Shown in pieces: positions 26,087-41,541 of a stretch of 42,950 nucleotides of DNA. The position numbers and the translations under genes were made by a program. Each line of letters begins with the position of its first letter. The first letter of the stretch is position 1. Source of the stretch: a virus (Duplodnaviria > Heunggongvirae > Uroviricota > Caudoviricetes); IMG/VR virus record IMGVR_UViG_2870479586_000005; one strand, 5' to 3'. The notes below the pieces were generated by a model, which was not told where the DNA came from, did no database searches, and worked only from the letters and a program-made list of their open reading frames with translations.

Positions 26087-26333
26087 TCTCTCGGTCCAAC
26101 AGTCTTTCGAAAGCCCTGATCAAAGGGCCTTGATAAATTAGCAGTGCGTTGAAAACAGATAGTTATTCCCATCAGTTCCAACGTAATACACATCAAAAAA
26201 ATCACCATTCTTTTGCTCTACGTCAACACCTACCCTTAAAAAAATAATTCTCCAAGAATGAGAAAGTTATTGTGTGTATTAGATAAGATATGAGCTGACA
26301 CATCTATGGCGTGGAGCCAAACCTAATATGACA

Positions 26334-26370
26334 GTCCGCTCTGTGCCAAGAGCGAACATTACAAACACAC
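26334..26370 (-). repeat. Conserved hairpin motif, copy A (downstream of the 291-aa gene)
   Basis: Minus strand: GTGTGTTTGTAATGTTCGCTCT-TGGCAC-AGAGCGGAC. 9-bp stem (one G-U pair), 6-nt loop. Confidence 0.6.
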
Positions 26371-26509
26371 TAAAATTTATGTTTGTACTTCGCTGTAGCC
26401 ACCTAAAAGTATTATTGCGGGTGGTTTCGTGACAATGTTAGATATTCTTCATTTTGAATTGATTACTGAATTAAGATAAAACCACCCGAATTAAAACTAT
26501 CAAAAGTAT

Positions 26510-27385
26510 CTATGGTTGTTCATCACTCTCTTCTGAAAGTATTTGTACTACTTGTCCACACTCTCCACATACTACGTGTAATTGACTATCTTCTTCGGAC
26601 TTGAAAATCTCACTAACTAAGCTATGACAGTTAGGGCATTTTATCTCGTTATCAAAACCTATGAATTTAAGGAATAAGTTTTGAATTAATGAAACTGCAG
26701 TGCAAGTGAGTATAAGGCAAATTTTAGCGTCAGGAATGTTTTTGTTTGAAGAGTGCACCGTCTCTGCGGAAAAATCCCATGCAGACTCAATCGTTGAGCG
26801 GCAATATTTTCTGAGACTTGAGTTTCGTTTTCCTGCGGCATACAACCCAATAATAATTCGGCAAATATTTTTAAAGTCAGCTGCTTTAATATTTTCTTTT
26901 TTTAATATATCCTCATGAGTTTTATAAAGGTGAGCAGCAAGCTCAACCATGCTCTCTCTACAAGTTAGTCCAATACTTTGAATATCTTCAGGGGCCTTAA
27001 TATTATTCAGAGCAACAGCAGAAGCATTTAACCTCCGGCTAATAGAACGAAGCATATCTATATCTAAAGGTAACTCATCAATAACATGTTTGAAATCATT
27101 GCTATGTCTTGCTTGTAGTCTTTGAGTTATACCCAAATGAAAAGAATATGCTTCATCAGCAGAAAAGAAAAACTCATTTTGAGTGTATAAGTTTAAAGGA
27201 ACGTTTTCACCTTCAGCAACCCACCAGTTACCATCATTTTTTGTTCTGACGTTCCAAATGTTAACCTCAAAACCTAAATCATTAAATGTTTGCTCAACTT
27301 GCATGTTTTTTATGTTTTCTATATTTTGAGTTTTTAAATATTCAGTAATTCTTTTCTCAGCATCGATTCTGTATTCTGGTGTCAT
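26510..27385 (-). CDS. Hypothetical 291-aa protein with a C-terminal zinc ribbon
   Basis: AT-rich gene. Preferred ATG at 27385, with AAGGGA upstream (the track uses a TTG at 27391). C-terminal CPNC-x18-CGEC. An internal RLQARH matches the loose Rx4-6H pattern. A TTAACG-17-TATAAT promoter-like element sits in the 58-nt gap upstream. Confidence 0.6.
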   Translation of the reverse strand: MTPEYRIDAEKRITEYLKTQNIENIKNMQVEQTFNDLGFEVNIWNVRTKNDGNWWVAEGENVPLNLYTQNEFFFSADEAYSFHLGITQRLQARHSNDFKHVIDELPLDIDMLRSISRRLNASAVALNNIKAPEDIQSIGLTCRESMVELAAHLYKTHEDILKKENIKAADFKNICRIIIGLYAAGKRNSSLRKYCRSTIESAWDFSAETVHSSNKNIPDAKICLILTCTAVSLIQNLFLKFIGFDNEIKCPNCHSLVSEIFKSEEDSQLHVVCGECGQVVQILSEESDEQP

Positions 27386-27449
27386 GTGCAATCCCTTTTA
27401 ATAAGATACTAAAAGTAAAAGCGCATTATAGCATAACACATACAATGCG

Positions 27450-27695
27450 TTAATGCGTATGCTTGTGCCCTGTAATGATTTCAAAATGAACGTTTGCATA
27501 CAACTGTTTTTTGATCTGGTTGTATTGCAACAGAATGATTTCCACTGCTCGTTCATAGCTGATCTTCAGTTTAGTTAGCATGTCCGTTCTGTGCCTTTTA
27601 AGTTCATTCTTGCCATACTTAGCCGACTTGAATGCTATTTCTTCTATCACTTTTTTAGTTGGCATATTGGGGCTAGAGTTCCGTTCCTCGCTCAC
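27450..27695 (-). CDS. Hypothetical 81-aa helical protein
   Basis: GTG start with AAGG upstream (alternative ATG at 27665). Lies between hairpin motif B and the 291-aa gene. Confidence 0.4.
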   Translation of the reverse strand: MSEERNSSPNMPTKKVIEEIAFKSAKYGKNELKRHRTDMLTKLKISYERAVEIILLQYNQIKKQLYANVHFEIITGHKHTH

Positions 27696-27729
27696 GGCAG
27701 ACCTTAAGCTCAGTTAGTTCGTCTGCTCC

Positions 27730-37235: not shown

Positions 37236-37270
37236 AAAGGCAATGTTTTCAATGCATTGCCTTTATTTTT
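37236..37270 (+). terminator. Rho-independent terminator after the repressor gene
   Basis: AAAGGCAATG-N9-CATTGCCTTT followed by ATTTTT. Confidence 0.65.
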
Positions 37271-37281
37271 ACCCCAAATAC

Positions 37282-37331
37282 TAACTTTTGTTATAAAACA
37301 TCTTGCACATAAAATTACCTTTAGTTATATT
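37282..37331 (+). promoter_or_regulatory. OL operators and PL (TTGCAC-17-TATATT)
   Basis: TAACTTTTGTTA (37282-93) is identical to the OR site. TACCTTTAGTTA (37316-27) lies in the spacer between TTGCAC (37303-08) and TATATT (37326-31), mirroring the PR layout. Confidence 0.5.
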
Positions 37332-38178
37332 CATTCCATCAACAACGCTTACCCAGCGGCAGTTGTTCAGAAACACGTTCTGACAGCCGGAAAGACGGCA
37401 CCAAATTTTGCGCGTCGGCGCCAACACGGTGACAGAGGGAAAGACTTCACCGGCATATGGCACATGTGTCGAAGCGGTCTGGATGGAAGCGGAGCCTTAA
37501 CGCGTTGTCTCCATAGCAGGTAGCCGGAATGTGCAAGCCACAGCCAGGTATGAGCGATTGATTCACCATCAAGGCGATACGGTGTGACCACCAGGGAAGA
37601 GTCCTGGCTACAACACGAGAGCGCACTTCATCGACTCAACTTTGAGCTTTGTCGTTAAATTTTGAAATGGCGGAGTGCGCTCCCGGTTGTGGTGAACAGG
37701 TGTTTAACGGGAACTCCCTGCCCGTTACCCGGTTCGATTCCGGGCGCCCATCATCAATTTGCTGTGTTTAGTCTTTGCCCAGTCCGCACGATGGGCCATT
37801 TTTTCACACAGCCAGGTTTTATCGCTGTGCCTGAGTCCCCAACAGGAGAGGCCAAACCCGCAGCGTGACACCAGGGAAAGACCGGAGGAAGTACCACGCC
37901 TGACCAGCGTTGACCATGAGCCTGACCAGCTCAAAACAGGAAAGACCAGCCCTGTACGGTCGTAATGGAAACATAACGACGCCGGAAACGTAACCGGCAC
38001 CCTTTAGATAGCAAAAGACCCGCACAAGGCGGGCCAGTTACCCCGAACGGCGACCAAACCATTCGGATTTATCACAAGTGACCAAACTTGTGATGAGGAA
38101 AGACCAACGACACTGACGCTATGGAAGCTGATCAATATTCGCTGATCGGCTCTGAGTATACATTACCAAGGAGTCGCT

Positions 38179-38499
38179 ATGGAAGCGCGCACCATCCCAG
38201 TAACACTCTTTATTCATTATGCAACTTCAACTTTCAGCCACGAAAAGCTGCTTGTTGCGACGGTTGATATGTCAAAAAATTTTCCAGACAGGTACATCCT
38301 TCTGGAAAGCCGCGAAATTGAAATTACCGTCAACCAGCCCCAGCCAATCGACATCATCGGTTTACAGGTCGAGCAGCTGCATGAGCAAAAACAGAAAACA
38401 GCCGCCGACGCCCAACAGCGTATTGCTGCTATCGATGACGAAATCCAGCAGTTACTTTGCATCGAATACACGCCAGATACCGATGAAATCCCCTACTAA
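38179..38499 (+). CDS. Hypothetical early-left protein (106 aa)
   Basis: First ORF with an RBS (AAGGAG) after the long leader. Confidence 0.5.
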   Translation: MEARTIPVTLFIHYATSTFSHEKLLVATVDMSKNFPDRYILLESREIEITVNQPQPIDIIGLQVEQLHEQKQKTAADAQQRIAAIDDEIQQLLCIEYTPDTDEIPY

Positions 38500-38529: not shown

Positions 38530-38859
38530 ATGACCATTTTTAACGGCTTGTTAGAAGCGAAAAAAGGCGCGCTCAAAAACGGTGCGATCCCGGCGCTGGC
38601 CATCGCCATCGACGCCCCTAACAAAAAAGTTGCCGAGAACATCATCATCGGCAAATTGTGGGAAGCCTACCCTGACCACGGCGACAACTATTTCAAACCT
38701 AAAATCTGGGAGGATGCCCCAGGCCAACCGCGCCCAGGCGTCGGTGAGTTTGATGAGACGTTTGCCACAGAACACAGTTTTGATGGCGAAAAATGGGTAG
38801 TTAACCCCCCGCTGATTCAGATAGCGGTTCAGCAGATATCGCACAGGTTAACGACCTGA
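38530..38859 (+). CDS. Hypothetical early-left protein (109 aa)
   Basis: Preceded by the TAATGAGGAAAGACCA initiation cassette. Confidence 0.5.
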   Translation: MTIFNGLLEAKKGALKNGAIPALAIAIDAPNKKVAENIIIGKLWEAYPDHGDNYFKPKIWEDAPGQPRPGVGEFDETFATEHSFDGEKWVVNPPLIQIAVQQISHRLTT

Positions 38860-40745
38860 TGAAACTGCCTGCTCGTGAACGCTTCGCCGCCGTCCTGCTG
38901 TTCAGCCACGACGCCAACGAAGTCGACAGTGAATTGCTTGCGCAGACGCGTGAATACCTGGAGATGCTCGACAACAGTGATACTAACAGTGAGGATGAGG
39001 TTGACGCGTTTAACCGCATCGTCCTCGATGCCATGGTAGCGTGTAAGCCCATTGAGTACATGCATATTGCTGGATTGAATAATCTGGTACATGCAATTTT
39101 GGCAAGTTGCGATACCCAGGAACAAAACCCGACCAGTTGGACTATCTCCAAATTTATAAAAAAATGGGTAGAGAATCCCGGTAAACGCGATGAAATGCTG
39201 CCGGAGGTAAAACCACAAACAGCATCCGCACGTCCTTACCAACAGACTCACGCCACACTGGATCGTGAAATTGCCTGCGCCCTGTTACCTGTTGCCCCGG
39301 AAAAAATCACCCCCAGCATCCTGAAAGCGGCAGACGAAATAATCAGTCAGGACAGGGAAGATTTTAAACGCTGGTCAATGGCCTTGCGCACAACGGATCA
39401 GATCCTTGCCTATGACCGCGCATCAGTATTCGGTGTTATTCAGAGCGCCCCCGCAAAAGACACGTACCACTTCCCACAATCCCTGCGCAGTCACATCGAC
39501 AACTGGCTGCAAGCTAACGGGCAGCGTGATGCAAATGCTGTTGAAGAGAAGCCAAAGGAAGCAGCACCAAAGGATGATGTAAAAGTCACCAACCACGGCG
39601 GCGGACGATTCTCAATTGATGGGATGATGTCAGAAACATCCTCAAATCAGGGCGAAAAAAGCGAAGCAGCAAATGCTGGAGAACGTAGTTTGCAGCAGTT
39701 GCGTGAGCAGTTTGTCACGCCCCGCCATGTGTATGGCGTACCAGAAAATAACGCCGTATCACAGCGGGAATCTGTAACTGTTATCCTGGAAGAAGAGACT
39801 CCTCCACAAGAAAAACTTAGCGAGCAGGTAAAGGAGCCTGTGCAGAACGTTGACGCGCTGGTTGAGCGGATCCATACCGAAGAGCACCAGCGGCAGAATG
39901 CAATCTCAGCTATCGAAACGGAGTTAAATGACTCCAGTGATACGGATAACCTGGCATTGTGGAAGAACGTATTCAAAACCGATGAGCGTTTCACCAAAGC
40001 TTTCTCTCAGAATGGCGGCGGCACATCCATCAACGGTACTTATATAGCGATGAAAGCGACTCGCGAATTTGGGCCGTTTGGTATTGGCTGGGGTGTAGAG
40101 GTGGTGGAAGAGCGTTTTGATAAAGGCGCACCGATAGTTCGCAAAAAACAGGTTGGTGAAAAAATAGAATGGGATCTGATTCAAGACGGAGTTGGCGGGT
40201 ACCTATGTGAAATGCACCACACCATGAAAGTTAGAGTCTGGTACATATTGAATGGGGTGCGCGGTGAGTCCGAGGCTTACGGATGCACACCTTATATCTA
40301 CGACACTAAATACGGACCAACAAGCGACGGCGAAGCGCCGAAGAAATCCTGGACGGATGCTGTTAAGAAAGCGCTATCCCCTCTCGGATTCAGCGCCGAT
40401 ATTTTCATGGGCCTGTACGACAATCCGGAATACCGCCAGAGGAATAAAGCTGAGTTTGATATCAAGAATGCCAGCGAAAATGCGGAAGATGCTACCCGTC
40501 TGCGTAAGGAACTGGATGAGAAGCTTATCAACGTTGCCAATACGCTGGCCGCCGCGGTAACCGCCAACGAAGTAAACAAGGTATTTGGCCTCATCGCCCG
40601 CGAAGTGGATGTACACCGAAAAGCAGCAGAAGCCAAAGGCGATAAAGAATATTCATCGTATCTGGGATCGCGCCTGCGCCGTATCACCGACATCAAAACT
40701 GAACGCCTCGCCGCCCTCACCGCTGCACAGGAGCAAACCGCATGA
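38859..40745 (+). CDS. 628-aa protein with a C-terminal Rad52/Sak-like single-strand annealing domain
   Basis: ..SINGTYIAMKATREFGPFGIGWGVEVVEE.. and ..KKSWTDAVKKALSPLGFSADIFMGLYDN.. parallel Rad52-family motifs (..FG.NGWS.. and ..KEA.TDALKRALR.FG..LGN.LYD). About 370 N-terminal residues are unassigned. Confidence 0.65.
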   Translation: MKLPARERFAAVLLFSHDANEVDSELLAQTREYLEMLDNSDTNSEDEVDAFNRIVLDAMVACKPIEYMHIAGLNNLVHAILASCDTQEQNPTSWTISKFIKKWVENPGKRDEMLPEVKPQTASARPYQQTHATLDREIACALLPVAPEKITPSILKAADEIISQDREDFKRWSMALRTTDQILAYDRASVFGVIQSAPAKDTYHFPQSLRSHIDNWLQANGQRDANAVEEKPKEAAPKDDVKVTNHGGGRFSIDGMMSETSSNQGEKSEAANAGERSLQQLREQFVTPRHVYGVPENNAVSQRESVTVILEEETPPQEKLSEQVKEPVQNVDALVERIHTEEHQRQNAISAIETELNDSSDTDNLALWKNVFKTDERFTKAFSQNGGGTSINGTYIAMKATREFGPFGIGWGVEVVEERFDKGAPIVRKKQVGEKIEWDLIQDGVGGYLCEMHHTMKVRVWYILNGVRGESEAYGCTPYIYDTKYGPTSDGEAPKKSWTDAVKKALSPLGFSADIFMGLYDNPEYRQRNKAEFDIKNASENAEDATRLRKELDEKLINVANTLAAAVTANEVNKVFGLIAREVDVHRKAAEAKGDKEYSSYLGSRLRRITDIKTERLAALTAAQEQTA

Positions 40746-41311
40746 GCACAGCTATCGCTATTGCAAAAGAATATGCCAGCCTGATTGACCTGCTGGAAAC
40801 CTCCGACGAACTGACGCCAGAGATGATCGCCGACACGCTTGAAGGTATGGAAGGAGAACTGGGAGACAAACTGGACGCCATGATGGTCATCTGCCGCAAT
40901 TTACAGGGCAATGCCAATACCTGCGCTGAAGAAATGTCTCGCCTGGCTACCCGTAAGACGTCCTTTGAAGGCAAGGAAAAAGCAATCCGAAAGCATATGC
41001 TCGCCTGCCTGCAAGCTGCTGGCCTGGATAAACTGAAAACCGCAAAAAACACATTTACTGATGCACAGGGGGCTATCCGGGTAATTATCGATAGCAAAGA
41101 TAAGATCCCGGATGAGTATGAAGGCGTGTCACTTGTTGATGTAGAAACGGTTATTACACCAAACAAGCGAGCCATTAAAGAAGTGATTGAATCTGCGGAG
41201 GCGGTTGCCGCCGAAATACTGGCGCGTGGAGAAACACCACCAGCCGAGTTATTAAACCCGGTACCAGGCGCACATCTGGAACGCGGCGAACGTTCACTGA
41301 GGGTACGCTAA
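40742..41311 (+). CDS. Siphovirus Gp157-like protein
   Basis: 189 aa, acidic and helical, with the N-terminal pattern ..EYASLIDLLETSDELTPEMIADTLEGMEGELGDKLD... Sits adjacent to the annealing protein, as is common for this family. Confidence 0.55.
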   Translation: MSTAIAIAKEYASLIDLLETSDELTPEMIADTLEGMEGELGDKLDAMMVICRNLQGNANTCAEEMSRLATRKTSFEGKEKAIRKHMLACLQAAGLDKLKTAKNTFTDAQGAIRVIIDSKDKIPDEYEGVSLVDVETVITPNKRAIKEVIESAEAVAAEILARGETPPAELLNPVPGAHLERGERSLRVR

Positions 41312-41472
41312 TGCTTAAACTCACATTAAAGCGTGGTGACGCGGTTCACCTGGTACTTGCCGATGGAACCAACGGCATTATTGAAGCACGGAGCCGCTGC
41401 GAACTTGGGCTACACCTGCCAGAAAACATTAAGGTCACGCGGGAGAAATCGGCATTCCCCCACCAGAACTGA
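41311..41472 (+). CDS. 53-aa ORF with a CsrA-like (or AbrB-like) sequence pattern
   Basis: Translated by hand: MLKLTLKRGDAVHLVLADGTNGIIEARSRCELGLHLPENIKVTREKSAFPHQN. TAATG overlap with the upstream gene. Compare E. coli CsrA MLILTRRVGETLMIG...RIGVNAPKEVSVHREE. Confidence 0.35.
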   Translation: MLKLTLKRGDAVHLVLADGTNGIIEARSRCELGLHLPENIKVTREKSAFPHQN

Positions 41473-41541
41473 TTACGCCTAATCAGAAATAAAAACTCAC
41501 CATCGCTAGCATTGCGATTCACCAGTAACCGGAGGATCACA

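Follow-up and report, generated by a model that had tools for sequence, protein, structure and literature searches.

The window analysed here is a 42,950-nucleotide (nt) stretch of Caudoviricetes DNA (IMG/VR record IMGVR_UViG_2870479586_000005). It represents a temperate E. coli prophage with lambdoid regulation and a contractile tail, integrated beside the tRNA-Leu/Cys/Gly cluster near pgsA-uvrC. Between its cI-like repressor gene and xis-int, in the early-left operon, lies a large gene whose product joins a RecE/YdfE-type N-terminal region to a C-terminal domain with a predicted Rad52 fold, and a gene of the Sipho_Gp157 family follows it. From profile matches and predicted structures, we consider it likely that the two genes form a nuclease-free recombination module, in which a RecE-type scaffold is fused to a Rad52-type annealase and paired with Gp157. 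This is a new architecture within the known phage annealase modules, and a widespread one; our literature search found no publication describing the fusion.

Composition of the fused gene and its Gp157 partner

The initial annotation presented the gene as an open reading frame (ORF) of 628 amino acids (aa). That ORF is present at 38859-40745 (+) and starts with ATG, but it is not the whole gene. A 109-aa ORF (38530-38859) lies just 5' of it in a different frame, the two meeting in a TGATG overlap, and on the 728-position profile phrog_2489 the 109-aa ORF matches positions 1-94 and the 628-aa ORF positions 109-728. Related E. coli prophages, 97-98% identical over the locus, are annotated with a single gene of about 738 aa at this place (738 aa in L001), and the locus was found in 458 of 5,426 complete genomes, in the chromosome in every case. 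Judged by these relatives, the real gene is 38530-40745 and encodes 738 residues, of which the 628-aa ORF is only the downstream part. The alignment shows a run of six C residues (C6) at 38806-38811 of the window where the closest relative has seven (C7); relatives carry either C7 or ACCCCC. A 71-nt probe across the run matched 442 complete E. coli genomes, none of which gave a perfect match to the C6 allele. The window was also compared with its closest genome, the complete E. coli genome L012 (~99% identity, four aligned blocks; about 3 kb at 26.1-29.1 kb was left out), and of the 16 insertions or deletions (indels) found, 13 left the window one nucleotide short at the end of a homopolymer run. 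Because of this indel pattern and because none of the genomes matched by the probe shares the C6 allele, the split is most likely a sequencing or assembly artefact caused by homopolymer under-calling. Programmed frameshifting at the C-run was weighed as well but dropped, since 12 other homopolymers in the window show a 1-nt loss like this one. In E. coli, Salmonella, Pectobacterium phage ZF40 and others the fusion itself runs uninterrupted, so the suspicion that it might be an artefact did not hold; nor do relatives have two separate genes at this position but instead one longer gene, although separate, stand-alone annealase homologues do occur in Pseudomonas.

The Rad52-like domain occupies the last ~270 residues of the protein (~470-738). 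An AlphaFold model of this domain, based on a 31-sequence alignment, had a predicted local distance difference test score (pLDDT) of 90.7, and when Foldseek was run with it against the PDB, ranks 1-8 were all human RAD52 N-terminal domain (1h2i, 5jrb, 8bjm, 1kn0, 8rjw), with E = 4e-7 to 5e-6, prob 1.00 and template modelling (TM) scores of 0.48-0.60 on the target; the ninth match had E = 0.06. No RecT, Red-beta or Mgm101 structure stood near the top of the Foldseek list, which places the predicted domain closest to Rad52 proper, that is, Sak-like. When each family member was scanned against Pfam, PF04098 (Rad52_Rad22) was matched in 29 of 31 at E <= 1, below threshold, the best match having E = 1.4e-5. 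Residues ~470-738 have hundreds of homologues, many of them stand-alone proteins of ~243 aa from Pseudomonas and its phages; among these, NCBI names one as belonging to the Rad52/Rad22 family, and another has a precomputed match to PF04098. Nine residues are invariant in the alignment of 31 homologues (K148, K149, S150, T152, D153, A154, K156, K157 and G163), and they form a pattern, KKS-TDA-KKAL-G, which we take to resemble the KxAxTDxxKRALR motif of RAD52. In the model the core is followed by three long helices, a shorter version of which is present in the stand-alone homologues. The C-terminal domain is best described as a putative remote member of the Rad52 superfamily, of the Sak/Rad52 type, as had been proposed when the sequence was first read.

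The region preceding the annealase had been described as acidic and as matching no recognisable motif. It does include an acidic disordered stretch, but it is not devoid of known relatives. Residues ~231-336 match positions 275-371 of phrog_607, the Rac RecE family (E = 6.5e-25), and positions 260-370 of the NCBIfam model NF007259, exodeoxyribonuclease VIII (E = 2e-12), the stretch that matches RecE directly being 232-327; at 46 bits, the match to NF007259 falls short of the full-length cut-off of 1269, so the protein does not qualify as an equivalog of that family. In the reverse direction, K-12 RecE matched phrog_2489 (E = 2.7e-5), and BLASTP gave a match to K-12 RecE 263-332 with E = 0.008. 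An iterated profile aligned K-12 RecE 12-455 with residues 13-432, an alignment that is transitive in that the profile includes RecE-like intermediates. PF27430 (YdfE_N) was found at the N-terminus of relatives, and the 628-aa ORF had no Pfam match at E <= 0.1. The AlphaFold model of residues 1-470 (pLDDT 77.6) consists of an alpha/beta head (1-93), helical domains at 110-225 and 240-335, an acidic disordered linker of ~90 residues (343-430) and a long helix leading into the annealase, and no nuclease fold was found in the N-terminal region. By these matches the N-terminal ~340 residues are a non-catalytic region of the RecE/YdfE type. The linker contains a motif, G-x-G-x-F-S-[IV]-[DE]-G-L, that was present in 12 of 16 annealase-class, 8 of 15 nuclease-class and 3 of 7 DEDD-class representatives (the classes are defined below) and was not found in K-12 RecE; its appearance suggests docking to some partner. 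In RecE, the nuclease domain (residues 564-866) is separate from the N-terminal region, the function of which is not known, and the full-length protein enhances linear-linear recombination (PMC11611040).

The gene downstream had been called Gp157-like, and its match to PF05565 is indeed well above the cut-off (99.6 bits vs 28.6, E = 2.4e-28; residues 6-156 on profile positions 4-149 of 162). The two genes are translationally coupled through a 4-nt overlap (ATGA) of the annealase stop with the start of Gp157, and GGAG lies 8 nt upstream. The same 4-nt overlap of a homologous pair, with proteins ~40% identical, was seen in Salmonella prophages, ZF40 (gp07/gp06), Pseudomonas phage PMG1 and a Pseudomonas chromosome. 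ZF40 gp07 matched the N-terminal profile at 1e-133 and the Rad52-like profile at 2e-96, and the Gp157 gene follows it. The stand-alone annealase in the Pseudomonas chromosome is without the N-terminus and keeps its Gp157 partner; since stand-alone homologues keep Gp157, the annealase-Gp157 pair is the conserved unit, and presumably the functional one. When the locus was compared with a phage collection, megablast gave no match and tblastn found homologues. The Salmonella protein is recorded on at least 1000 contigs, and the collection searched has it in 2,011 index blocks. PHROG gives phrog_253, the family of the Gp157 protein, the label 'Mu Gam-like end protection', while Mu Gam itself belongs to phrog_491.

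Domain combinations and known recombination systems

With residues 111-457 as the query, HMMER was run over the full set of 1.8 billion representatives and recovered 92 proteins, which we sorted by their C-terminus, both locally and with Pfam. Three classes of C-terminal domain were found: a Rad52-like domain (at least 13 representatives), the RecE PD-(D/E)XK nuclease (at least 13), and a DnaQ-like DEDD exonuclease, PF16473 (at least 6, plus phage Tritos). The head of the protein varies as well. In Pfam, K-12 RecE consists of PF06630 (residues 2-178) and PF12684 (615-850), and one protein, P0254, has the PF06630 RecE head (4.6e-77) and the RecE middle region followed by a Rad52-like C-terminus. 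The name of PF06630, 'Exonuc_VIII', is misleading in that the family models the N-terminal ~200 residues of RecE, which are non-catalytic and not a nuclease. The RecE/YdfE-type N-terminus is best read as an addition in the enterobacterial members (E. coli, Salmonella, ZF40). As an observation of its own, P0122 (E. albertii, 622 aa) and P0138 (Salmonella, 718 aa) have a near-identical N-terminal region and clearly diverged Rad52-like domains, a pattern indicating that modules have recombined at the linker.

The protein resembles the RecE proteins of Rac, Gifsy-1 and Gifsy-2 in its N-terminal region, in its size and in its early-left operon position upstream of xis-int. It differs in that the PD-(D/E)XK domain (564-866, PF12684) is replaced by the Rad52-fold annealase, in that its head is of the YdfE_N type (PF27430) rather than PF06630, and in that no recT is adjacent, the next gene being Sipho_Gp157. 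With the nuclease domain absent and no recT, the window protein is, on this evidence, not a RecE. The idea that the Salmonella homologues are the Gifsy-1/2 'recE' genes was rejected: Gifsy-1/2 RecE, annotated as exodeoxyribonuclease VIII, share only residues ~105-401 at 34% identity. The protein does fit the description of 'RecE-2' in a survey by Zheng, Casjens, Davidson, Amundsen & Smith (2025, PMC12315714), namely RecE-related, encoded in the early-left operon and without the nuclease domain. The survey gives RecE-2 no function (PMC12315714). The window protein plausibly corresponds to these RecE-2 proteins, an equivalence drawn from shared features, and the comparison suggests that at least the ZF40-type protein may be a fused annealase. 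A closer parallel in the head is provided by the YdfE-type protein of Tritos and the Qin prophage (823 aa), which shares the YdfE_N-type head, the RecE-like middle and the operon position (after dicB-ydfD, before xis-int) but ends in a DnaQ-like DEDD 3'-5' exonuclease (PF16473, 2.2e-67) and has no Gp157 gene after it.

On the C-terminal side, the comparison is with the human RAD52 N-terminal domain, Sak of lactococcal phage ul36 and PF04098 in general. Residues ~472-627 have the same predicted fold, which in the RAD52 N-terminal domain comprises a beta-hairpin, a three-stranded sheet and a bridging helix; here a beta-sheet with a hairpin is followed by a helix with conserved basic residues, which may correspond to those on the helix lining the single-stranded DNA groove, and the weak but consistent PF04098 matches and the location in a phage recombination module agree with this likeness. 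The window protein differs from this group in falling below the Pfam cut-off, with no more than ~17-18% of residues identical to RAD52 when the structures are aligned, in the RecE-type extension of 460 residues at its N-terminus and the long helical tail at its C-terminus, and in having Gp157, not an exonuclease, as its conserved partner. The inferred layout is like that of the P22-type recombination (Rec) modules (Erf plus Abc, no nuclease), in which an annealase is combined with an end-protection or anti-RecBCD factor and resection is left to the host, although the sequence families are unrelated and only the window annealase is fused to a RecE-type adaptor.

Proposed mechanism and alternative explanations

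In the mechanism that we favour, the Rad52-like domain would bind single-stranded DNA as an oligomer and anneal complementary strands, as Sak, Erf, Red-beta and RecT do. No Exo-, RecE- or YqaJ-type nuclease gene was found among the prophage ORFs scanned, as had been noted from the sequence at the outset; because no phage exonuclease is encoded, the single strands would have to come from host nucleases or replication, as in a P22-type module. Gp157 would be made in step with the annealase and act as its partner, possibly as a DNA-end-binding protector that bars RecBCD from the phage ends. This last suggestion draws on the PHROG label and on the scoring of ZF40 in the survey as having an anti-RecBCD gene and as negative for a single-strand annealing protein (SAP) (Zheng et al. 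2025, PMC12315714). The survey also states the rule that Chi is lacking from phages that combine a Rec module of their own with an anti-RecBCD gene (PMC12315714). Only 2 Chi sites occur in the 43 kb of the window, which is near chance expectation, and this low count fits the rule. The N-terminal region would not be an enzyme but a portable adaptor, joined by temperate phages of enterobacteria to whatever end-processing or annealing domain they employ; its folded domains and linker motif would probably tether that domain to a host factor, a partner or a DNA end. It is possible, though we hold the idea only tentatively, that this portable adaptor, fused in turn to a 5'-3' nuclease, a 3'-5' nuclease or an annealase, docks all three at a single hub through its folded domains and linker motif, the hub being for instance a factor of host replication or repair, or a DNA end. 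If this were true, it would explain linear-linear recombination by full-length RecE but not by the nuclease domain alone, and the annealase fusion with Gp157 would be a self-sufficient, nuclease-free recombination system usable for recombineering.

Several observations weigh against parts of this reading. The window domain itself scored 13.6 bits against PF04098 (E = 0.063), under the 20.3-bit cut-off, and PDB sequence searches with the 738-aa protein and with the C-terminal family profile gave nothing meaningful and did not reach RAD52, so that the Rad52 assignment rests on predicted structure and on consistent weak profile matches. With respect to Gp157, BLASTP against Mu Gam was not significant (E = 3.2), hhalign with 6- and 16-sequence profiles gave a probability below 1%, and profile searches of the PDB found no match, 2P2U included. 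In ZF40, where both genes are present too, the survey records many Chi sites (19/2; PMC12315714), a number ill-suited to a strong anti-RecBCD function. The adaptor role of the N-terminus is drawn from domain architecture alone. Finally, the frameshift, if real, means that the gene is broken in this strain.

That last point can be extended to a full alternative, in which the change from C7 to C6 is biological and the locus is a pseudogene that makes no full protein, yielding at most a 628-aa product from Met111 by re-initiation at the TGATG. The sequence as given does contain the frameshift, the ATG at 38859 shares bases with the stop codon that ends the 109-aa ORF, and prophage genes often decay, the Q gene of the closest relative having an internal stop. 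Against this, the excess of homopolymer losses relative to a genome that is ~99% identical is a signature of sequencing chemistry and not of selection, and the allele occurs in none of the complete E. coli genomes matched by the probe; we regard a real pseudogene as improbable. Far harder to credit is that the protein is an exonuclease, as it is called by PHROG ('exonuclease') and in some PGAP records ('exonuclease family protein', 'phage-associated endonuclease'). The labels find some justification in the genuine homology to exonuclease VIII at residues ~230-340, but that homology is limited to the N-terminal region of RecE, apart from the nuclease domain at 564-866 (PMC11611040), and the PF12684 domain of K-12 RecE is missing. 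PHROG applies the name 'exonuclease' to the fusion and to stand-alone Rad52-like proteins alike (phrog_7838, phrog_2489), even those of 243 aa, and the label has been copied to the RefSeq entries for ZF40 gp07 and PMG1_00054.

One could also envision that the Rad52-fold domain serves a role other than recombination. The Rad52 superfamily includes end protectors that do not anneal, and the domain might protect ends or bind single-stranded DNA as DdrA does, act in replication initiation or restart, or be a decoy or sensor target in a defence conflict, with the N-terminus as the main functional part, for example an antagonist of RecBCD or of a defence system. Phage annealases are often targeted by defence systems (PMC11846896), and phages of the Gifsy-1 and Tritos classes, the large proteins of which have the same N-terminal region, are without a recognised anti-RecBCD gene (PMC12315714), so the region could supply that function. 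The canonical Rec slot, the coupling to an annotated end protector and the low Chi count nevertheless fit a Rec module, and stand-alone homologues that are without the N-terminus keep their Gp157 partner. PADLOC, with a library that does not contain anti-defence proteins, gave no defence-system match, and an anti-defence domain, one of the functions first offered for the N-terminal extension, thus found no support there. A role outside recombination appears unlikely to us.

Thousands of prophage proteins from E. coli, Salmonella, Klebsiella, Yersinia and Pectobacterium that are labelled 'hypothetical' or 'exonuclease', together with the 243-aa Pseudomonas phage homologues that carry the same misleading label, are most likely Rad52-type annealases. 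Survey scoring would change, with ZF40 moving from 'anti-RecBCD only' to 'annealase plus anti-RecBCD', and RecE-2 would acquire a proposed role. The occurrence of one region with three unrelated C-terminal effectors offers a way of studying by comparison the N-terminal 560 residues of RecE, which have long gone unexplained, and the annealase-Gp157 pair is a candidate new recombineering system. As to the window itself, the odd 628-aa ORF is most likely the product of a homopolymer sequencing error. What results is a useful new assignment together with a clue to what the N-terminus of RecE does; no new principle is demonstrated.

Prophage context and homopolymer losses

Leftward, the region encodes a YdaT-like protein and Cro (P22_Cro). 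Rightward, the order is a cI-like helix-turn-helix repressor gene, about 0.9 kb without a long ORF, orf106, the 738-aa gene, the Gp157 gene, orf60, an excisionase gene (DUF4224) and the integrase gene. The rest of the prophage contains replication genes, an antirepressor gene with C4/isrK RNAs, NinB, Q, lysis genes and terminase, and a relative has the contractile tail. The product of orf106 was matched by nothing in Pfam, NCBIfam or PADLOC; in Salmonella and ZF40 the large gene is likewise preceded by a gene of about this size (107-108 aa), the likeness being one of size and position only. The coordinates of the features are collected in Table 1.

Table 1. Positions in the window of the fused gene, its predicted domains and the adjacent small genes
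Feature	Position	Strand	Basis
Conserved small upstream gene, 106 aa	38179..38499	+	phrog_2479, E = 3.3e-51
Start of large gene, residues 1-94, predicted alpha/beta head domain (YdfE_N type)	38530..38811	+	
C6 homopolymer; 1-nt loss dividing the gene into 109-aa and 628-aa ORFs (probable artefact)	38806..38811	+	Alignment, probe, indel pattern
Predicted helical domain 2 of the RecE/YdfE-type N-terminal region, residues ~110-225 of 738	38859..39203	+	AlphaFold helices 115-223, pLDDT 75-93; RecE ~114-225 in iterated profile
Predicted helical domain 3, best-conserved N-terminal module, homologous to RecE ~260-370	39246..39533	+	phrog_607, NF007259, BLASTP; pLDDT 91-96
Predicted disordered acidic linker	39555..39818	+	pLDDT < 50 at residues 343-353 and 364-429
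GGGRFSIDGM motif inside the linker	39597-39626	+	Conserved in homologues
Predicted Rad52-fold single-strand annealing core, residues ~472-627	39942..40409	+	AlphaFold, Foldseek; PF04098 sub-threshold
Annealase C-terminal helical tail, three long helices, candidate partner-binding domain	40425..40742	+	Model helices 176-218, 222-245, 249-280
Sipho_Gp157 family gene, 189 aa	40742..41311	+	PF05565; phrog_253, 1.8e-46; ATGA overlap read directly
Small gene 3' of Gp157, 60 aa in relatives (183-nt ORF), 53 aa here	41311..41492	+	phrog_2482, E = 5e-31

The homopolymer losses relative to L012 are scattered over structural and regulatory genes, the sites including 1387, 2550, 2742, 5606, 9986, 11229, 21259, 21331, 21517, 32464, 38811 and 41462. 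The pattern points to a probable systematic under-calling of homopolymers in the window sequence, and other ORFs in the window may be wrongly split or shortened. One such case is the small gene after Gp157, which a change from C6 to C5 at 41457-41462 cuts from 60 to 53 aa. The start of this gene overlaps the Gp157 stop (TAATG), and its product gave a weak CsrA-like hint in Pfam (E = 0.065).

Three further regions of the prophage deserve mention. Rfam identified a C4 antisense RNA, with a1/b1 targets, and isrK at 31453-31650 (-), directly 5' of the antirepressor gene at 30613-31449 (-; phrog_4792). By this arrangement, 30613-31650 is a putative antirepressor control region of the P1/P7 type, immI-like, within a prophage of lambdoid immunity. 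Another region, ~26100-29100, is an island of low guanine-plus-cytosine content (0.33-0.37) that did not align to the closest relative, which has a GIY-YIG nuclease gene and IS1 there; its minus-strand ORFs encode proteins of 293 aa (with a hint of a zinc ribbon), 81 aa and 359 aa (DUF2971), and the island is likely a variable slot for cargo or defence genes. The stretch of ~0.9 kb between the cI-like repressor gene and orf106 (37250-38180) lacks any ORF exceeding ~90 aa; Rfam gave no match there at the gathering threshold, and in one relative two small overlapping genes are annotated in the equivalent stretch.

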